From: Octopus vulgaris
Taxonomy: Eukaryota
Length of the DNA: 64,000 nt
Assembly (NCBI GenBank): GCA_951406725.2
Contig: OX597820.1
Coordinates: forward strand, 310,001 to 374,000
Direction of reading: 5' to 3'
The translations under genes and the position numbers were made by a program. This document shows positions 11,180 to 60,357 of the stretch, piece after piece (within the stretch, counting starts at the first letter, position 1; each line of letters starts with the position of its first letter). The notes below the pieces were generated by a model. That model was not told the DNA's origin. It did not search any database and saw only the letters and a list, made by a program, of their open reading frames with translations.

Positions 11180-12055
11180 TGGTTTCAAATTTTGACACAA
11201 GGGCAACAAATCTGGGGCTGGGGGTAAGCAAATTACATTGACCCCAGTACGCAACTGGTACTCATTTTATTGACCCCAAAAAGATGAAAGGTAGTTGACT
11301 TTGGTGGAATTTGAACTCCAAATATAAAGACAGAGAAAAATGCCAGTAATCATTCTGCCTGCTCACTGCCTTAACTATTGGTACCATTAAGATTTTATTC
11401 AAGGTAGCAAAACTGGCAGATCCGTTGGCATGCCAGGCAAAATGCTTAGTGCCATTTCATCTGTCTTTATATTTAGATTATTTACATTATTTACATTTAA
11501 CGGATATTTGTCCTCATCTTGTTTGTTGTTAACACGTGTCAGCTGATATACCCTCCAGCCTTCATCAGGTGTCTTGGGGGAAATTTCGAACCTGGGTTCT
11601 CATTCCTAAGGTATTTTTCAATGTTATTATTATTATTCAGGTCACTGCCTGGAATCAAACTCACGGGCATATGGCGTAGTGGTTAAGAGCGCAGACTACT
11701 AACCCCAAGATTCTGAGTTCGATTCTAGGCAGTGATCTGAATAATAATAATAACATCGTAAAATACCTTAGGAATGAGAACCCATGTTCGAAATTTTCCC
11801 AAGACACCTGATGAAGGCTGAAGAGTATATCTGCCAAAACGTTGTGTAAACAACAAACAAGATGAGGACAAATATCTGTTAAATGTAAATAATGTACATA
11901 ATACCTCATCTCTCAAATATAGAACTGTTTTGTTGACTTTGCTTTTCATCCTTTCAGGGTCAATTAAATAAGTACCAGTTGCGCACTGGTGTTGATGTAA
12001 TCATCTTAGCTCCTTCCCCAAAATTGCTGGCCTTGTGCCAAAACCTGAAACCAAT
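11180..12055. mobile_element. Divergent pair of family-2 SINEs (11180-11370 -, 11403-12055 +); the + copy is interrupted by the foldback element
   Basis: Core GACTTTGCCTTTCATCCTTTCGGGGTC..AAGTACCAG as in 15066-15275. Confidence 0.75.
11477..11926 (+). mobile_element. tRNA-headed, HHR-tailed SINE-like element with an upstream inverted copy of its 3' part (copy 1)
   Basis: Inverted arm 11477-11663; head from 11665 with A box TGGCGTAGTGG and B box GAGTTCGATTC; GACAC-CTGATGA-AGGCTG..at 11803-11847; second copy at 24539-24932. Confidence 0.8.
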
Positions 12056-23056: not shown

Positions 23057-24538
23057 GGATGGGGTGGGTAAGGTGGTCAGCTGGCAAAATCATGTTGGAC
23101 AAAATTGCTTCACAGCATTTCACCTGTCTTTACATTCTGGGTTCAGATTCTGTGGAGGTTCACTTTGCATTTCATTCTTTCGGGGTTGATAGAAAAAAAA
23201 AAAATAAAATAATAATAAAGTACCAGTTGAACACTAGAGTTGATGTAATCGACTTACCTCCTCCCTCCCCTCTGACTTGTACCAAAATTTGAAACCATTG
23301 TTATGGGTGGGGCTTCAAACAAAATCATCTTCAATCAAAATAATGTCCCTTTTACCTTTCTGGCATCGATTCAATGTTAAAAGGAACAGACAAGCCACAG
23401 GTCTATGCCAAGCTCCAATGTCTGCTTTGACATGGTTTCTATAATTTCATGCCTTTCCTAATGCCAACCACTTTACAGAGGGTACTGGGTACTTTCTTAT
23501 TTTCTTTTTGGAGGCACCAGCATCAGTGAGGTCATTGAGTACTCACAAGACAAGATCTTTCCTCAACCGAAAGGGGTAAATTATGATAGATAGGAACAGG
23601 TGTGTTGTTGAAGAGGGGGATACATGGCTTCCTAAAATGCTTAGTGTTATTTCATCGTTCCATCCATTTACTTTCCAAAGTTCAAATTTTATTGACACCA
23701 ACTTTCTTTCATTCTTCAAAATTCAATAGCATAAAGTATCAGTGAAGTACTGACTTCACTTCAATAGGCTTTACCACACACAATTTATAATCTTGTACCA
23801 AAGTTTAAAAAAAGTATCATTATGATTAAAATAGTCATCTGTGCATCATACTTAATGCAAATACATCTCAGCAAACAAAGTTTACTATGGTATTCATTGA
23901 GAGCTAATATCACTTATGGGCATACAGTGTTAAATGACAAAAATTTAATGGTAGCAGAAGAAAATTGTCCAGTAGTAGTGGAAGTGAGGATGTTAGCTGG
24001 GCATTTCTGCCTTTTTGGGCTTCGGCAGCAGCATGTACTCAGTAGTAGCCACTTGGCAAAACAAAATCCATCATCACTGATATAGGAAAATAGTAACTGA
24101 AAAATCACTGATGTTGCAATAAGCTGGCTGGTTGAATAAAATTGATATATGCAACAGAAGCATTCCCACTCTGCTGTTGGATGATTTTTGTCTACTACAG
24201 ATATATATTTCTGTGTTTTTTAACATAAGAGATACTATCTCCAAATGAATGCTGCAGTTAATTTGGCTTTCTATACTGTATCTGCATTAAGTATGATGCA
24301 CAGGTTGCTATTTTATGCAAATACTGCTTCTGTTGCACAAACCAAATAATGATGGTTGTGTAAAGAGCTGTCAGGTAATTGATAAATTTCTAGCTAGCCA
24401 TGCATGTACTTACATTTACCAGTCAAAATAAATTCATGTCCTTTATGCTGTTAATGCCCTTTGGGACAACATGAAAACCCCCATTACTTTGCTGTTTCCC
24501 CTACAGAATTGTGGTTTGTGTCACTTATACTACTGGTG

Positions 24539-24932
24539 CATTATTTACATTATTTACATTTGACGGATAATTGTCCTCATCTTGTTTGTTAACACAACAT
24601 TTCATCTGATATACCCTCCAGCCTTCATCAGGTGTCTTGGAGAAATTTCGAACCTGGGTTCTCATTCCCATGGGCATATGGCATAGTGGTTAAGAGTGTG
24701 GGCTTCTAACCCCAAGATTCTGAGTTCGATTCCAGGCAGTGACCTGAATAATAATAATAATAACAACATCAAAAAATACCTTAGCAATGAGAACCCAGGT
24801 TCAAAATTTCTCCAAGACACCTGATGAAGGCTGGAGGGTATATCAGCTGAAATGTTGTGTTAACAACAAACAAAATGAGGACAAATATCTGTCAAATGTA
24901 CATAATTCCTCATCTCTTAAATATAGAACTAG
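24539..24932 (+). mobile_element. tRNA-headed, HHR-tailed SINE-like element with an upstream inverted copy (copy 2), flanked by a 10-bp TSD
   Basis: ACTACTGGTG at 24529-24538 and 24933-24942; inverted arm 24539-24668; tRNA-like head from 24672; HHR motif 24816-24861. Confidence 0.85.
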
Positions 24933-25099
24933 ACTACTGGTGTTATTGATAAAATTATAGACATCATAAATTACCCCATTTCTCTCTCGTTTGAAGTCCT
25001 CTTCATACATAAGAGCTCTATTCTAGTGTAGTGTGCCAGAGAGCAAAAGTCAGTTATTTATAAACAAAAGACTAGCACTCCATTGGTCACTCAATGAGA

Positions 25100-25385
25100 G
25101 TTTCAGTTGGTCTGGTCAATGGAACAACCTGCTTGTGAAATTAACATGTAGGTAGCTGTGCACTGAAACATGTGGTACCCTTCATGTAGTTCTGAGGAAG
25201 ATTCAGCTTGACACAACATGATAGGGCCAGGCCCCTTGTGAATTACAGGTACCACTCATTTTTGCCTGCTGAGTGAACTGGAGCGATGGGAAATAAAGTG
25301 TCTTGCTCAAGGACACAACATGTCACTAGGAATTGAACTCACAACCTAACAATCATAATCTGAATATCCTAACCACTGAGCCATG
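25100..25385 (-). mobile_element. tRNA-derived SINE (family 3)
   Basis: Reverse complement of the copy at 35170-35470 (CTTGAGCAAGACACTTTATT..CTCCAGTCCACTCAGC). Confidence 0.7.
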
Positions 25386-42211: not shown

Positions 42212-42545
42212 TGACGCTTGCGATGGTATGGTCATGTACAACGGATGGATGAGGAGAGATGTGTGAAGAAGTGCCACTCCCGAACAGTTAGAAGGAATCA
42301 GGGGGGAGAGGTAGACCCAGGAAGACATGGGATGAGCTAGTCAAGCATGACCTCAGAGCGTTGGGCCTCACTGAGGCAATAGCGAAGGACCGAGATCTCT
42401 GGAGATGTGCTGTGACTACTAAGACCCGGGATGCTTCAGGCACCAGTTCCGCATACCCTCTGCCCATTCAAAGTACCTTTGATCCCGGAACATCTCGCTG
42501 TGCTTGAGGAGACCTATTGAGTCAAGTGCATATACATGAACATCG
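42212..42545 (+). mobile_element. 5'-truncated RTE LINE 3' end joined to the CR1/L2-type LINE
   Basis: RLRWYGHVQRMDEERCVKKC..GRGRPRKTW, homologous to 56678-57010 and 59505-59860. Confidence 0.85.
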
Positions 42546-43824
42546 AACCAAATATCAATGGAAACAGTAGTTGTGATACCTGTACCGGTGTCACATAATA
42601 ATCACCATCCGAACGTGGCCGTTGCCAGTGGACATTGAACCAAATATCAATGGAAACAGTAGTTGTGATACCTGTACCGGTGTCACATAAAAATCACCAT
42701 CCAAACGTGGCCGTTAACAGTGAACATTGAACCAAATATCAATGGAAACAGTAGTTGTGATACCTGTACCGGTGACACATAATAATCAACATCCAAATGT
42801 GGCCGTTGCCAGTGAACATTGAACCAAATATCAATGGAAACAGTAGTTGTGATACCTGTACCGGTGACACATAAAAATCACCATCCAAACGTGGCCGTTG
42901 CCAGTGAACATTGAACCAAATATCAATGGAAACAGTAGTTGTGATACCTGTACCGGTGTCACATAAAAAATCACCATCCAAACGTGGCCGTTGCCAGTGA
43001 ACATTGAACCAAATATCAATGGAAACAGTAGTTGTGATACCTGTACCGGTGATCACAAAAATCACCATCCAAATGTGGCTGTTGCCAGTGAACATTGAAC
43101 CAAATATCAATGGAAACAGTAGTTGTGATACCTGTACCGGTGTCACATTAAAAATCACCATCCAAATGTGGCTGTTGCCAGTGAACATTGAACCAAATAT
43201 CAAGGGAAACAGTAGTTGTGATACCTGTACCGGTGTCACACAATAATCACAATCCAAACGTGGCCGTTGCCAGTGAACATTGAACCAAATATCAATGGAA
43301 ACAGTAGTTGTGATACCTGTACCTGTGTCACATAATAATCACCATCCAAACGTGGCTGTTGCCAGTGAACATTGAACCAAATATCAATGGAAACAGTAGT
43401 TGTGATACCTGTACCGGTGTCACATAATAATCACCATCCAAACGTGGCCGTTGCCAGTGAACATTGAACCAAATATCAATGGAAACAGTAGTTGTGATAC
43501 CTGTACCGGTGTCACATAATAATCACCATCCAAACGTGGCCGTTGCCAGTGAACATTGAACCAAATATCAATGGAAACAGTAGTTGTGATACCTGTACCG
43601 GTGTCACATAATAATCACCATCCAAACGTGGCCGTTGCCAGTGAACATTGAACCAAATATCAATGGAAACAGTAGTTGTGATACCTGTACCTGTGTCACA
43701 TAATAATCAACATCCAAACATGGCCGTTGCCAGTGAACATTGAACCAAATATCAATGGAAACAGTAGTTGTGATACCTGTACCTGTGTCACATAAAAATC
43801 ACCATCCAAACGTGGCCGTTGCCA
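42538..43824 (+). repeat. 92-bp tandem repeat, 14 copies visible, running into an assembly gap
   Basis: GAACCAAATATCAATGGAAACAGTAGTTGTGATACCTGTACCGG.. recurs at 42545, 42637, 42729 ... 43742. Confidence 0.97.
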
Positions 43825-43924: not shown

Positions 43925-46199
<2,275 letters not shown>

Positions 46200-46200
<1 letters not shown>

Positions 46201-46404
46201 ATAGATATATATATGGTTCATATTTGTAGATATTTATCAGATCAGATATATATAGATACATTTTTTACATACATATATATCATATCATTCGGATTAGCGC
46301 TTGCTCCCATTCTAGTGGGTTTTCAAATCAAATCAGTTGTGGGTAGTTTGAACCTTTTTATAGTTTCGTAGTAGTGGGTGAGGAGGAAGTGAGACAGAGA
46401 GAAA

Positions 46405-46474
<70 letters not shown>

Positions 46475-46665
46475 ATTTATATCTGAGAGTGAAGAAGTGT
46501 TATTTCCGTTGGTCTGCTGGACCCCCTGTGGTTTTATAAGAACTTTGGCTGTCCATTTCAATGTCACTGAGTGTGTGTTGTGCATAGGTTGGCCTGGCAA
46601 ATGTCATTTGGGGTCACACTTTCTATGATCATTCTGTGGAGGTGTGTGTGTGTGTGTGTCTCTGT

Positions 46666-46714
<49 letters not shown>

Positions 46715-48750
46715 TGTGTGTGTCTGTGTGTTTGGAGAAGGGAGAGAGACAAAAAGAGAAAGGAAAATAAAAATAATAATAATAAAAATAAAAAATAAAA
46801 AATTAAAAAAATAAATAAAATAAAATAAAAACAAAAAATAAAAAATAAAATAAAAAAATATAAAGAATAAATAAAAATATAAAGAATAAAAAATAAAAAA
46901 ATAAAAATAAAAATAAAAATAAAAATAAGGGAGGAAGTGGAGAAGAAAAAATATTTTTGTGTGTTGATATTTATACCAACACATATATATACACACACAC
47001 AGACTTATACATAAAATATTTGAAAAAACCTTTTTATCGGTTCAAAATGAACAACCAAATTATACCATCTTGAAAGTTGTATGTCATAGGAAAGTTAAAA
47101 TTAAAGTGACAATTAAAGGGTAAAGATGGAAGTGAATTATAAAGATAATAATATAATATGATGTATATAACAGGCAATACACACATCTACACACACACAG
47201 ATTTTTCCTTCAATGTATGTTGAGTAAAGTTTCAGCCATTTAATTTGGGGGAGAACTTAGCTATGAAATGTTTTTCCATATTCCTCCTGAAGGGGGTGTC
47301 ATTCTTCGGACACTTGTAGAAGGGAAATATCTTAAATTTTCCTTCTCCACATGTAGCTAGGTGTGTGCTTAGTGGTATTTTGCGTAGTTCTTCCTGCCGA
47401 ATATGTTGTCGGTGGATCCTGGCTCGCTGGCACAAAGAATTACCAGTTTCTCCTACGTAATTCTCCTTGCATGTGGGGCAGGTTATGCAGTATATGACGT
47501 TCTGCGTCTTGCAGTTCATATCTGCATTTACTTTGAATATGACACCATTTTTAAATCTTATCTCTCTGTTGCTCTCTATGTATTTGTAGGTGGGGTTGCT
47601 GCAGGTCCCACATCTACCATCTCCGCACTCTTTTGCAAAGAATTCCGTTTTAGTTTCTGAAGAGAATTTCGCTCTTGTTAGGTGTTTTTTTAGGTTTTTG
47701 TCCTGTCGTCTACTGTTTTTTATGCTATATTTGTTTAATATGTTTTTCATTTTGGGGCTCTGTAAGGCTATTGGTAGGTTTGAATGTATGGTTTGGAAGA
47801 TGTTGGTAACTCCAGGGTTGTGTGTGTTTATAAAAGGGATAGTGTTTTCTTTGTTTTTTGTTTTGGGTGTCCTGAGTTGTGTGATGTCTAGTTTTAATGC
47901 TCTTGTGATTCCATTTTCTATTAGTTTAAGGGGGTATTTTTGCTCTAGGAGGAAGCTTTTGAGTTCATCTAGTCTTATTAATCGTATTTGTGAATCAGTT
48001 ACTATGCTACATATTCGTCGTGCCATACTATATGGGATGTTTCTTTTTGTGTGGGATGGGTGGCAGGAGTGGAAATTTAAGTATTGATGTGTGTCAGTTT
48101 TTTTGTAGTGGATGTCTGTTGTGACGATGGAGTTGTGTATTTTGATGTTGATGTCTAGGAAGGGAAGTTCGTTGTGGCTGGTATCTATTGTGAAATTGAT
48201 AGATGGGTGCAGCGTATTGAGGATGTTGTGGAATGTTTGTAGGTCCTCTTCTGATCTGTTCCAAAAGATGAAACAGTCATCGAGGTAGCGTTTCCACTTT
48301 TTCTTGATGTCTTCTCTGAAGTCGTGTTCGAAGACTTTCCCTATTTCGTCATATAGTTTTTTCTCCAGGAAGCCCATCACTAGGTTGGCATATGAAGGTG
48401 CGAATTTTGTACCCATAGCCGTGCCTTTTATCTGTCGGTATGTCTTGTTGTTGAATGAGAATGTGTTTTCTTCTAGTATTAGTTGGGTGGCTTGGGTGAT
48501 AAAGTTTGTCTTGAAGCGTTCATCTATAAGTTCTCTGTATTTTTCTATTGATTGTTTTATAGCTTCTAGACCTAGGGTGTGTGGTATGTTTGTGTATAGA
48601 TTTGTGACATCAAAGCTTGCAAGTATTTGATTTGATTTGATTTGAAAACCCACTAGAATGGGAGCAAGCGCTAATCCGAATGATATGATATATATGTAAA
48701 AAATGTAATATATAAATAAATATCTACAAATATGAACCATCTGATCTGAT
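46200..48750 (-). mobile_element. 5'-truncated Penelope-like element (probably Neptune clade) with an inverted copy of its 3' terminus at the 5' end
   Basis: ~120-bp inverted repeats at 46213-46335 and 48629-48750 bracket the RT-EN ORF and a (CA)n/T-rich 3' region. Confidence 0.9.
47232..48628 (-). CDS. Penelope-like reverse transcriptase + GIY-YIG endonuclease (N-terminally truncated, no internal stops)
   Basis: ASFDVTNLYTNIP, GTAMGTKFAPSYANL, RYLDDCF; linker CGDGRCGTC; NVIYCITCPTCKENYVGET..R..H endonuclease; the first ~38 aa of the tracked ORF come from the inverted repeat. Confidence 0.92.
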
Positions 48751-49624
48751 TACCTCAATTTTTCTATTATATATATATATATATATATGTATATAATAAT
48801 ACAAAAAATGGAACAAGTACGCAACGGGTGAGAACGAAATATCCAGACAGTTAGATGATACAAAAGGGACAAGAAAATACAAGGACGGGTCATTCGGAGT
48901 TTTCTTTTCTCAGTCGAGTTCCTGATCATCTTCGCAGTTTCGGCTGGTTATAGGAGGATATGACTATTATTTAACATAACGATCATATTAAGTGGCCAGC
49001 ATGAAAAAAAAAAACAAAAACTTATTATTATTATACATACATAATATAATTTTTATTGAGGGTACCGAAGAGGAACCAATATGCAAGAAATGACAGTCAA
49101 AACTAATTCTAAAACCACATCATAGCACAGGTGAAAAGATGAAGGAACAAAGAAATAAGCAGAAATCGTCGACATGGAGTTAACCATTCAGTGTTTGCTA
49201 ATTTCTTTGGTCATTTATCTTATCACCTGTGATATATGAATGCATGATGTAGTTTTAGTCAGTTTTGACTGCAAGAGCTGGCTTGGTGGTGCGTCTTCGG
49301 AACTCTTAATTATATATCTAAATCTATATATGATAAATATACATATATATTATGATATATATATGTATATATGACATATTAGGATATATATTTATGTATA
49401 TATGACATATTAGGATATATATATATATGTATGTATATATGACATATTAAGATACATATATTTGTATATTTGACATATATTATGATATATATACATATAT
49501 GTATATGACATATATATTATGATATATGTATATGACATATATATTATGATAAATGTATATATGACATATATTATGATATATGTATATATGATATATATAT
49601 TATGATATATGTATATATGACATA

Positions 49625-55097: not shown

Positions 55098-57299
55098 AAA
55101 GGAAGAGTGATTTGGAGACTAAACCAAAATGGTGAGTTTTTTAATATTACTTGTTTTTTTGGCTTGGAGAAGCCATTACGAAAGACTGCTGAATGTGGAG
55201 AATGAATGGGAGGAGGAGAGTCTGCCAAATGTCGACCCAACTGAGGGACCAGCTATCCGAATAGATAGCTTGCTGGTAGATAAAGCAATTAAGGGTATGA
55301 AGTCAAGAAAAGCCTCCGGCCCACCAGAAATCCCTACTCTGATGCTTAAAATATCTGGTGGTGTGGGCTATGGCCTAGTCATCCGTATTGTAAATCAGGT
55401 AGTTCACAAAGGAATCATACCCAACGACTGGCATAGCAGCACCATAGTCAACTGCTACAAAGGTAAAGGTGATGCTCTAGGTAGAAATAACTGCAGGGGT
55501 ATCAAACTACTGGATCAGCTGATGAAGGTCATCGAGAGGGTCACAATCCATCTCATTAGGGAGAGAATCCGCTTTGATGAGATGCAGTTCGGTTTTGTGC
55601 CGGGTAGAAGCTCCACTGATGCCATATTCATGGTTCTACAACTGCAGGAGAAATACTTAGCCAAATGCCTATACTTAGCTTTTGTGGACTTGGAGAAAGC
55701 CTTTGACAGGGTCCCCTGATCCCTTATATGGTGGGTGATGCGGAAACTGGGGATTGACGAATGGTTAATAAGGGCTGTACAAGCCTTATACAGAGAAGCC
55801 GTTGGGAAGGTTAGGATTGGCAATGAGTAAAGTGAAGAGTTCCGGGTAGAAGTAGGGGTCTACCAAGGATCAGCCCTCAGTCCCCTTTCATTCACCATCG
55901 TCCTCTAGGCAATAACAGAGGAATTCAAGATGGGTTGCCCCTGGGAGCTCCTCTATGCTGATGACCTGGCCTTCATAGCAGAATCACTACCGGATCTAGA
56001 GAAGAAATTTCAGGTGTGGAAGCAAGGTTTACAATCAATGGCCTTAGAGTCAATGTAGCAAAGACCAAAGTTCTAGTAAGTAGGAAGGCAAACTCATCAC
56101 ACCCTCAGGTAGGTGGTCCTGCTTGATCTGTAGAAAAGGTGTAGGTAGAAACTCCATAAGATGAACCCAGTGTAAGCTATGGACACATAAGAGGTGCAAC
56201 AACATCAAAGAAAGATTAACCGAGAAGATAGCTTTTGTGTGCAGCAGATGCATTGGGGTAATAAACACCACAGATGCTCAGAAATTAGATTCCATCACAC
56301 TCCAGGGGAAGAAACTAGAAGTAGTTGAAAGCTTCCGCTACCTAGGTGACCAAGTTAGTAGTAGGGGAGAATGCTCTGAGAGTGTTACCACTAGAGTAAG
56401 AATAGCCTGGGCAAACTTCAGAAAGCTTCTACCCCTACTGGTGACAAAGCTCTCATGCTCAGAGTGAAAGGTAGATTGTACAAAGCATGTATGCAAACTG
56501 CCATGCTTCACAACAGAGAAACATGGGCCATGACTGCGGAGAACATGCGTAGGCTTGAAAGAAATGAAGCTGGTAAGATCCGCTGGATGTGTACTGTCAG
56601 TGGGCACACACGACAGAGAGTAAGCACCCTGAGAGAAATGCTGGACATAAGAAGCATCGGGTGTGACATGCAAGAGAGACGCTTGTGCTGGTATGGTAAT
56701 ATACTACGGATGGACGAGTGGAGCTGTGTGAAGAAGTGACACTCCCAAACAGTTGAAGGAATCCGGGGTAGAGGTAGACCCAAGAAGACATGATAAGGTA
56801 GTGAAGCATGACCTTTGAATGTTGGACCTCACAGAGGCAATGATGAAAGACCAAGACCTCTGGAGATATGCTGTGACTGCGAAGACCCAGCAAATAAAGT
56901 GAGTTCACGGCTGTATCCTACACCAGTTACAGCCCTAGCCCATTCAAAAGCACCTTAGATCATAGGGCGACCTGCTTGAGGAGACCTATTGAGCTAAGTA
57001 CATCAACATCAAAATGAAAATCAAATGGAAATTGTAGTTGTGATACGTGTGCTGGTGGCATGTAAAAAGCACCACCCAAACGTGGCCGATGCCAGTGCCA
57101 TCTTCACTGGCTTCCAGGCCGGTGGCACGTAAAAAGCACCCACTACACTCACAGAGTGGTTGGCGTTAGGAAGGGCATCCAGCTGTAGAAACATTGCCAG
57201 ATCAGATTGGAGCCTGGTGCAGCCCCCTGGCTTCCCAGACCCCAGTCGAACCGTCCAACCCATGCTAGCATGGAAAACGGACGTTAAACGATGATGATG
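55098..57299 (+). mobile_element. Decayed RTE-clade LINE (RT, PHD insert, 3'UTR, (GAT)n tail)
   Basis: RGIKLL, QFGFVPGRSSTDAIF, AFVDLEKAFDRVP, LLYADDL, FRYLG, GRGRP; stops and frameshifts. Confidence 0.92.
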
Positions 57300-58344: not shown

Positions 58345-60357
58345 CAGGGGTTTCAAGCTGTTGGATCAGGTAATGAAGGTTACAGAGAGGGTCACAGCCC
58401 AACTAATTAGAGAGAGAGTTAGTTTAGATGAGATGCAGTTTGGGTTCGTGCCAGGGGAAAGTACTACTGATGCTATATTCCTGGTAAGACAGCTGCAGGA
58501 GAAATACCTAGCCAAAGATAAGCACCTGTACCTGGCTTTTGTTGACATGGAGAAAGCCTTCGACAGGGTCCCCCGATCCCTTATCTGGTGGTCAATGAGG
58601 AAACTAGGGATAGATGAATGGTTAGTGAGAGCTGTGCGAGCCATACAGAGACGCTGCTAGTAAGGTTAGGGTTGGCAATGAGTACACTAAAGAATTCCGG
58701 GTAGAGGTAGGGGTCCACCAAGGTTCAGTCCTCAGCCCCCTCCTATTTATCATAGTCCTCCAGGCAATAATGGAGGAATTCAAGACAGGATGCCCCTGGG
58801 AGCTCCTCTATGCTGATGACCTTGCTCTAATTGCTGAGTCACTATCAGAACTGGAGGAGACGTTTCAGGTGTGGAAGCAAGGATTAGAATCGAAGGGCCT
58901 TAGAGTCAACCTAGCTAAAACCAAAGTCCTAATAAGTAGGAAGGTAGACAAATCACAAATGCTTTCAGGTAGATGGCCCTGCTCGATCTGTAGAAAAGGC
59001 ATAGGTAGAAACTCTATAAGTTGCACCAAGTGTAAGCTATGGACACATAAGAGGTGCAGCAATGTCAAAGGAAGGCTAACTAGGAAAATAGTTTTTGTAT
59101 GTGGCAGATGCTCTGGTGCAATAAACACTGAAAATGCGCAGAGACCAACTTCTGCCACTTTCCAGGGAGAAAAACTAGAAATAGTTGATAGGTTCCGTTA
59201 CCTAGGTGACCAAGTCAGTAGCGGGGGTGGGTGTGCTGAAAGTGTAACTGCTAGAATAAGAATAGCTTGGGCAAAGTTCAGAGAGCTCTTACCTCTGCTG
59301 GTGACAAAAGGCCTCTTGCTCAGAGTAAAAGGCAGACTGTATGATGCATGTGTACGAACAGCCATGCTACATGGTAGTGAAACATGGGCCCTGACTGCTG
59401 AGGATATGCATAAGCTCGCAAGAAATGAAGCCATACTTGACAGAATGTAAGTACCTTGAGAGAAAAGTTGGACCTAAGAAGCATCAGTTGTGGTGTGCAA
59501 GAAAGACGTTTGTGCTGGTATGGTCATGTGACGAGAATGGATGAAGATAGTTGTGTGTAAAAGTGCAATACCCTAGCGGTTGAGGGAACCTGTGGAAGAG
59601 GTAGACCCAGGAAAACCTAGGACGAGGTGGTGAAGCACGACCTTCGAACTTTAGGACTCACCGAGGAAATGACTAGAGACCGAGACCTATGGAAGTATGC
59701 TGTGCGTGAGAAGACCTGGCAGGACAAGTGAGACCATAACCCATGGCCTCTACCTGGGATGTAGCCAGTCCACTTATGCATACCTTTCCCTCTTGGGACA
59801 CAAAACTCTAATTGTGAAGACCTGTTGAAGTGAGAATCAAAATTGAAATCGATCAACATCAATAGAAATTGTAGTTGTGATACCAGTGCCGGTGGCACGT
59901 AAGCGAACCATCCGAACGTGGCCATTGCCAGAGTGCCAGTGCCACGTAAGCGAACCATCCGAACGTGGCCGTTACCAGAGTGCCGGTGGCACGTAAGCAA
60001 ACCATCCGAATGTGGTCGTTGCCAGTGCTGCCCCAACAGGCCTCCGTGCTGGTGGCACATAAAAAGCACCATCCGATTGTGGCCATTGCCAGCCTTGCCT
60101 GGCCCCCGTGCTGGTGGCACGCAAAAAGCACCATCCGACCATGGCCGTTTGCCAGCCCCGCTAGCACCTGTGCCGGTGGCACGTAAAAAGCACCCACTAC
60201 AATCACGGAGTGGTTGGCATTAGGAAGGGCATCCAGCCATAGAAACATTGCCAGATTAGACTGGGCCTGGTGCAGCCTTCTGACTTCCCAGACCCCAGTT
60301 GAACCGTCCAACCCATGCTAGCATGGAAAGCGGATGCTAAATGATGATGATGATGAT
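58345..60357 (+). mobile_element. 5'-truncated RTE-clade LINE with internally repeated 3'UTR (59885-60190)
   Basis: ORFs 58361-58660 and 58770-59450 (LLYADDL); (GAT)n tail. Confidence 0.93.

Follow-up and report, generated by a model that had tools for sequence, protein, structure and literature searches.

The DNA analysed here (hereafter the window) is a 64,000-nt stretch of the Octopus vulgaris genome, positions 310,001 to 374,000 of contig OX597820.1 in assembly GCA_951406725.2. It holds two copies of a non-coding repeat of the short interspersed element (SINE) type with a transfer RNA (tRNA)-like head, and in both of them the repeat is joined to an inverted arm. In copy 2, at 24529-24942, an inverted arm of 130 nt (arm 2, 24539-24668, minus strand) is followed by a full-length forward element of 264 nt (forward copy 2, 24669-24932, plus strand). 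The two stand head-to-head between the left and right copies of one 10-bp target-site duplication (TSD), ACTACTGGTG, which match exactly (24529-24538 and 24933-24942, plus strand), and the whole composite measures 414 bases. Arm 2 is a 5'-truncated copy of the 3' half of the element without the terminal tail; it has two TAAATAATG units at its end and is identical to forward copy 2 at 102 of 109 aligned columns. We found ACTACTGGTG at these two sites only in the 64-kb window, both strands counted, and when 5000 pairs of 20-nt windows were drawn at random with similar spacing, just 5 had 10 nt or more in common. An earlier note, made from the letters alone, had described a 10-bp TSD around the whole composite and an arm of about 130 bp stopping at CTCATTCC; both statements hold, and its coordinates and lengths of arms and copies were right.

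Copy 1, at 11477-11926, has a different layout. Its arm (arm 1, 11477-11663, minus strand) is 187 nt long, tail-less and extends to the B box of the tRNA-like head, as the earlier note had it with an estimate of about 185 bp. The arm overlaps the head of forward copy 1 (11662-11926, plus strand) by 2 nt, and the forward copies of the two loci are 84% identical over 271 columns. Copy 1 sits inside another SINE, the target of which is 22 nt long here vs 35 nt in all four uninterrupted host copies measured; the insertion therefore made a 13-nt target deletion and no TSD.

The element itself consists of a tRNA-like head, an internal linker, a body, a hammerhead and a 3' tail. Pattern matches place an A-box-like motif at 24679-24689 and a B-box-like motif at 24724-24733 (both plus strand); the Rfam tRNA match at 24679-24735 is weak (14.3 bits, E 9.2) and ARAGORN called no tRNA for the element head. 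The (AAT)n/(AAC)n linker read from the sequence at 24747-24767 (plus strand) leads from head to body and is shorter in copy 1. A minimal type I hammerhead is predicted at 24816-24861 (plus strand), with stem I, a CUGAUGA core, an unpaired A, a 6-bp stem II, GAAA and no real stem III. It is decayed in copy 2 at two CpG sites, 24848 and 24853, where most reads have C, and a decayed minimal motif is also present in arm 2 (24591-24636, minus strand; CTGATGA...GAAA match at 24600-24631). The last part, a unique 3' tail at 24899-24930 (plus strand), belongs to the forward copy and is absent from the arm. The locus has no open reading frame (ORF) of at least 100 aa and none for reverse transcriptase (RT) plus GIY-YIG. 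A search for tandem repeats found none at either window locus. Fragments of long interspersed elements (LINEs) are common in the window, and the element matched none of them.

For the hammerhead we aligned 14 motifs from the window and from related loci, these being related sequences partly chosen by motif. Paired cells made up 89.7% of the alignment, compared to 18-44% in slid controls, and the core was invariant at most positions. Stem II showed two-sided changes (C-G in 10 motifs and U-A in 3 at one pair, G-C in 7 and A-U in 5 at another), the count of which was matched by none of 500 shuffles. The alignment supports a 3' half that may fold as a minimal type I hammerhead with compensatory changes in stem II; the support is for the fold and not for activity. 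Free-energy folds of the hammerhead and of the head were no better than shuffles (z from -0.56 to 1.74) and no support was drawn from them; weak folding energies are to be expected for decayed minimal motifs. Just 5' of the hammerhead, at 24780-24815 (plus strand), we observed a second hammerhead-like layout (AAUGA, a 4-bp hairpin, GAAA and UUUC) with a non-canonical core.

The behaviour of the family was followed in contigs of four public runs from four studies (X1, X12, X14, X19), mapped to 24150-25350 at 85% likeness, with about 1,900-34,000 contigs mapped per run. Contigs with 12-18 differences bridged both the head-to-body and the body-to-hammerhead transitions, so the fusion of head and hammerhead is a property of the family and not a local scar. 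Depth in X14 rose from 15.6 on the flank to 91,000-1,500,000 over the element, which indicates a very high copy number and should not be taken as copy counts. The full family end at 24930 was found in 27, 418, 417 and 443 contigs of the four runs, with unrelated sequence behind it (agreement 0.43-0.48) and neither poly(A) nor a microsatellite. LINE-type tails were what the earlier note had named as telling against its reading; the full 3' end is unique sequence and not a simple-repeat tail. The tail-less end at 24539 was present in 222 contigs of X12 and 204 of X19, and was not among the rows listed for X1 and X14. At the composite itself the left junction was bridged in X12 and X19 under a 31-letter rule and crossed by 30 and 25 letters in X1 and X14, while the right junction was crossed by 29 letters in an X1 contig. 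Three runs had a coverage hole at 24970-25051, from which no absence is concluded.

Among the joints listed (15 of 286), seven connected an arm to a forward copy, six came from a 9-nt unit near the 3' end and two belonged to another repeat; a second listing (12 of 205 rows) gave seven further arm-to-forward pairs. This makes at least 14 distinct arm-to-forward joints, all of them head-to-head. The arm side fell anywhere from 24560 to 24649, and among the 14 listed joints the forward side was at the head (24667-24676) in six and within the element in eight. Arm length and the 5' end of the forward copy thus both vary, and the breakpoint is not fixed. Together with the arms of 130 and 187 nt, these joints bear out the view of the earlier note that the inversion is no fixed terminal inverted repeat (TIR). 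The joint of 24564 to 24674 had a depth of about 10-26 times the flank in X12, X14 and X19, and may be a recurrent breakpoint or a later amplification of one composite.

With respect to the 3' end, arm 2 is without the forward sequence 24899-24930, i.e. 32 nt, or about 24 nt if its last unit is the homologue of TACATAAT, and arm 1 is the same in this respect; the last ~30 nt said to be missing from both arms thus measure 24-32 nt. At the end of each arm stand two TAAATAAT(G) units. One unit followed by TACATAAT is found in forward copy 1, no unit in forward copy 2, and one or two units before TACATAAT in other copies of the public-run contigs; the number of 9-nt units varies within the family. 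Loose ends before 24895 (295, 341 and 318 contigs of X14, X12 and X19) were observed, and among the joints listed those on opposite strands from 24539-24543 to 24894-24899 reflect the same unit. Since forward copy 2 is without a unit that other copies have, the contrast there is in part a loss. The 'extra unit' that had been ascribed to the arms is therefore real in that both arms end in two units, but partly an artefact of the loss in forward copy 2. Loose ends before 24539 finish in the complement of TACATAAT, though agreement is low (0.43); this suggests two units plus TACATAAT as the stopping point of many tail-less ends.

Single-nucleotide variants connect arm and forward copy within a locus. 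Arm 2 and forward copy 2 both have T at 24641/24811, where about 94% of the read depth is C, and they also share a CpG change; arm 1 has another private T in common with forward copy 1. This is a modest signal of a common template for the arm and the forward copy of one locus; gene conversion is an alternative source.

The 3' half can also be read as a protein frame. From the ATG in the hammerhead core, 24824-24931 (plus strand), 36 codons run to the element end with one CpG-type stop, a feature reminiscent of the pseudo-long terminal repeats (pLTRs) of Penelope-like elements (PLEs) that include the ORF's initial codons; the frame matched no PLE protein. The candidate reading of the 3' half as the start of a PLE ORF was dropped, as it gave no word-index match and no similarity to 120 PLE proteins. 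Ten protein matches were obtained for the frame translated with X at the one stop. One of them, the Octopus bimaculoides protein XP_052830334.1 (P0129), is matched over its first 25 residues with 72% identity over the matched stretch; its first 25 codons derive from the SINE hammerhead region (24824-24898) and its start is the ATG of the catalytic core. That start is either an exonisation or an annotation artefact, and the match places the SINE family in Octopus. P0123 was rejected as an unrelated bacterial-type surface protein. The other eight (P0124-P0128, P0130-P0132) are unnamed database 'proteins' that translate direct tandem repeats with a period of 43 codons (129 nt). These units carry the hammerhead of the SINE 3' module and form retrozyme-like arrays.

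An alignment of the 129-nt units led to related loci in AT-rich, eukaryote-like contigs of two bacterial metagenome-assembled genomes. The contigs (C16 and C52 of G001, C278 and C340 of G002; L031-L074) are long and hold SINEs, LINE fragments and PLEs, and they are host contamination of GTDB genomes. Searches with exact window motifs gave no match in metagenome, viral or genome contigs; eight of ten genome-contig matches, to contigs of 49-72% GC with a 20-nt motif only, were dropped, as were three viral-contig matches.

Three of the related loci are inverted composites. At L004 an arm is joined to a tRNA-headed copy within a 12-bp TSD, with a tail nearly identical to that of the window element; here the 3' sequence of the arm exceeds that of the forward copy, which stops at the TSD, by about 55 nt. 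At L005 an arm, a tRNA-headed copy, a spacer and a second, direct truncated copy all lie within one 10-bp TSD, and the copy at the far TSD is without 41 nt of 3' sequence that the arm carries. The L005 spacer (locus 1408-2268) is about 150 nt long with (TA)n; spacer and second copy are likely a 3' read-through carried along. L024, of the L005 family, combines a different arm with a 5'-truncated forward copy and a borderline 9-bp repeat. With the two window copies this gives five composites; left out were L003 (decayed), L010 (cut by the contig end) and L025 (unrelated tandem motif). At L025 1296-2008 we observed a tandem array of a short unit with the 5' half of the hammerhead core only, the GAAAC half occurring once, at the end.

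Flanking duplications of 9-12 bp were present in four of the five composites (10, 12, 10 and 9 bp, that of 9 bp being borderline). In every one of the five the tail is confined to a single outer end, which is that of the forward copy in three cases and that of the arm in the other two (L004 and L005). The tail measures 24-32 nt in the window copies and 41-80 nt in the related families. Between families the heads differ, and the hammerhead and tail are kept.

The window also contains a coding PLE of another family. It lies at 46153-48795 (minus strand), is 5'-truncated and encodes RT and GIY-YIG domains (Pfam RVT_1 and GIY-YIG) in a frame of 505 codons (47232-48749), the best named relatives of which, at 50-60% identity, are in molluscs. 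This PLE is inserted in (TA)n and has an inverted 3'-end arm of its own at its 5' junction (48633-48795, matching 46153-46335). The earlier note had proposed a comparison with autonomous PLEs of the same genome, and this coding PLE has the same kind of inverted arm as the SINE. Its end may contain a U3-A8 variant of the hammerhead, as read by eye. As a partner of the SINE this PLE was rejected, having no similarity to the SINE 3' half. Elsewhere in the window, tandem arrays at 42537-43824 and 59885-60194 (92-nt unit repeated 14 times; 47- and 62-nt units) are built from a dispersed repeat that is also found at 57024-57097.

The composite resembles PLE insertions as described in published reports. 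Endonuclease-positive PLEs insert with an adjacent inverted pLTR, a 31-bp tail and a 9- or 10-bp TSD, some without TSD, and pLTRs alone suffice to mobilise non-PLE cargo in trans (PMC3846280). PLE insertions are also described with a 5'-truncated copy in inverted orientation and, at one end or the other, a tail of 30-40 bp, and the origin of these inverted repeats and tails is called undefined (PMC8557442). In vitro, a PLE protein cuts and extends both target strands and is predicted to act as a dimer; it starts at two RNA sites one tail apart, and the ribozyme is not needed for insertion (PMC11167929). In metazoan PLEs the minimal hammerhead lacks stem III, has a short stem I and leaves a base unpaired ahead of stem II (PMC4209133).

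We conclude, at a probability of roughly 0.78, that the composite is a tRNA-headed SINE-type element placed by a single insertion in trans by the RT and GIY-YIG endonuclease of a PLE. That the arm is made at each insertion is very probable in view of the variable breakpoints across the family (at least 14 joints), in agreement with the earlier note. The anatomy and the hammerhead make a PLE enzyme quite likely the mobiliser; the proposal of a PLE-dependent SINE is likewise backed by the match to published PLE insertions, with no partner PLE found among 46 loci. As to how the arm arises, we lean towards priming from both target ends rather than fold-back.

The steps that we infer would be as follows. 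Pol III would transcribe the element from its A and B boxes. The 3' 145 nt of the RNA, with a minimal hammerhead followed by a tail, would mimic a PLE pLTR, and cuts made by the PLE protein in the two target strands would be offset by about 10 nt, a distance suggested by the TSD. Both free ends could then prime cDNA on the SINE RNA: one priming, at the outer start site, would include the tail and in copy 2 extend to the 5' end, while the other, at the inner site, would omit the tail and stop early. Head-to-head joining of the two cDNAs would follow at 0-3 nt of microhomology, and its position would differ between insertions.

Several observations weigh against this reading. Identity does not pair the arms with their partners: arm 1 and arm 2 agree at 99 of 106 columns, arm 1 and forward copy 1 at 99 of 109, and the two arms differ from both forward copies in having C at one of the CpG columns and A within the last unit. 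A TSD is missing from copy 1, and L001, also tRNA-headed, stands alone with neither arm nor TSD. The 9-bp repeat of L024 is AT-rich and lies 9 nt from the arm end, and 9 nt was reached by 25 of 3000 random pairs (10 nt by 10 of 3000). The joint sides are short (19-38 nt) and were mapped at the 85% likeness, and the joints listed (15 of 286) included no empty site. At the gathering score Rfam gave neither a hammerhead nor a tRNA match, and matches below it are at the level of chance. A DNA profile of the hammerhead-to-tail module had no match in 46 PLE loci, which come almost entirely from other organisms; in three of the 46 a similarly arranged hammerhead lies downstream of the ORF match. The 3'-half frame matched no long protein, and none of the ten protein matches contains an RT.

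The same PLE enzyme could have written the arm after one priming only, by folding back or jumping onto its new cDNA. Self-priming has been proposed for inverted PLE structures (PMC3846280), and the private variants common to arm and forward copy, as well as the short microhomologies at the junctions, would follow from it. An arm copied from the first cDNA cannot exceed that cDNA, however, and the arms of L004 and L005 have about 55 and 41 nt more 3' sequence; neither window junction holds a long palindrome; and forward copy 2 is without the two 9-nt units of arm 2, though this could be due to later loss. The template jump of the earlier note thus stands as one of two routes, against which the L004 and L005 arms carry tail sequence absent from the copy at the other TSD. 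Two separate primings on the RNA fit this extra tail better than copying of the first cDNA, and we regard fold-back as unlikely while keeping it as a tentative alternative. Two independent insertions, a truncated copy homed in front of an existing one with a TSD inherited from either or due to chance, would account for the missing TSD of copy 1 and for the 10 of 109 columns at which arm 1 and forward copy 1 differ. No empty site was among the joints listed, and PLEs are said to insert in or beside earlier copies (PMC6765202). We nevertheless find this history improbable: TSDs surround the whole composite in four of five cases (one borderline), private variants are common to arm and forward copy within a locus, and all 14 listed joints are head-to-head.

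The head, the short tandem unit near the 3' end, the abundance of LINE fragments in the window and the solitary copy L001 would also suit a SINE dependent on LINEs in which a PLE end was captured in the distant past, with inversions due to twin priming of the L1 type or to later DNA repair. Twin priming inverts a non-overlapping upstream part. The arm here duplicates the 3' part instead, the full 3' end consists of unique sequence, neither poly(A) nor a microsatellite following 24930, and the hammerhead and tail are conserved across families with different heads, as expected if the enzyme still reads them; a LINE origin has little to recommend it against these facts. The 130-nt inverted repeats and 10-bp TSD of copy 2, taken by themselves, could be those of a non-autonomous DNA transposon, either a miniature inverted-repeat transposable element (MITE) or a Mutator-like element, with long TIRs, a 9-10-bp TSD and a tRNA-like insert. 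This is hardly credible given arms that vary in length (130, 187 and at least 14 further joints), the 24-32 nt between the right repeat and the TSD, the target deletion of copy 1 and forward copies that are often 5'-truncated; a MITE with fixed inverted repeats abutting a TSD of fixed length is ruled out by the variable arms.

Compared to known systems, the composite is most like the endonuclease-positive PLEs of the Penelope/Poseidon kind, for example Pen2a_Av and Pen2_Av of Adineta vaga and PAc of Anolis, which have an adjacent inverted 5'-truncated copy, a 9-10-bp TSD or none, an optional 30-40-bp tail at one end and a minimal hammerhead (PMC3846280, PMC8557442, PMC4209133, PMC11167929). 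Unlike autonomous PLEs, the octopus element has no ORF, is 264 nt long and starts with a tRNA-like head containing A and B boxes. It shows several features looked for in a non-autonomous PLE: a predicted minimal hammerhead near the 3' end, a variable inverted arm, a one-sided tail and a TSD of 9-12 bp or none. A 3' end similar to that of an autonomous PLE, another such feature, was found neither in the coding PLE of the window nor in the 46 PLE loci, most of them from other organisms. The element is non-coding like MRC1 of Chlamydomonas and the animal non-LTR (long terminal repeat) retrozymes, both of which are thought to borrow PLE enzymes, and the type I hammerheads of retrozymes are related to pLTRs (PMC8557442, bioRxiv 10.64898/2026.07.22.740005); relatives of the SINE 3' module occurring as 129-nt direct tandem units add to the likeness with retrozymes. 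Retrozymes and MRC1 are described as head-to-tail arrays, however, whereas the window copies are dispersed, head-to-head and tRNA-headed, and the word 'tRNA' is absent from the accessible text of the retrozyme preprint.

Sm-alpha of schistosomes has a tRNA-derived head and a hammerhead, Pol III transcription and more than 10,000 copies (PMC2770079, PMC6765202). It differs in forming tandem multimers cut by an active ribozyme, and no mobilising enzyme, inverted arm or tail is named in the accessible portions of these sources, the comparison being by description only. The small-RNA-headed non-autonomous LTR elements Helenus, Ajax and Cassandra are a precedent for a small-RNA part on non-LINE machinery (PMC10886601); they differ in using LTR machinery, and Penelope has no occurrence in the accessible text of that source. 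Classical tRNA-derived SINEs in the SINEBase definition are shorter than 700 bp, non-coding and present at high copy number, with a head from tRNA, 7SL or 5S that holds an internal Pol III promoter. The octopus element is likewise short, non-coding and abundant, and its head is tRNA-like, with A- and B-box-like motifs and a weak match to the tRNA model. The definition also demands Pol III transcription, a partner LINE and a simple-repeat tail, whereas the 3' end of the octopus element is unique sequence and an inverted arm accompanies its insertion. The octopus element works like a non-autonomous PLE and resembles a SINE at its 5' end.

Ohshima and Okada reportedly described octopus tRNA-derived SINE families in 1994, of which the present family may be one, and the 2015 octopus genome paper reportedly names an abundant SINE 'Twin'. 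The present family may already be named or deposited in Repbase or Dfam. A literature search, outside which lay most subscription papers, Repbase and Dfam, turned up no tRNA-headed SINE that had been reported to move by means of a PLE or to insert with PLE anatomy; the supplement of PMC13282606 contains neither 'hammerhead' nor 'ribozyme'. The insertion anatomy itself is already known, as are non-autonomous elements derived from PLEs (MRC1, retrozymes).

SINEs are defined as passengers of LINEs. If the reading proposed here is true, a tRNA-headed family with the hammerhead, the tail and the insertion signature of PLEs adds a new pairing of SINE and enzyme. We give slightly better than even odds to a wider picture, a group of tRNA-headed SINE-type families in the octopus and at least one other animal that have a PLE in place of a LINE as partner. 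Pol III heads of different kinds would there be set on one conserved hammerhead-to-tail module, and thousands of insertions would record two-ended priming with the tail on one end, possibly with the 9-nt unit copied again, in the manner of telomerase, at the start that lacks the tail; the same class would include Sm-alpha. According to PMC13282606, 893 of 900 recently active octopus SINE families are unclassified, and SINEs partnered by PLEs may explain part of this load. The element is 264 nt long, non-coding and of very high copy number: its complete insertions fit within single reads, and it could serve as a minimal RNA for the existing in vitro assay. An element this short and abundant makes the origin of the PLE arm and tail directly testable.

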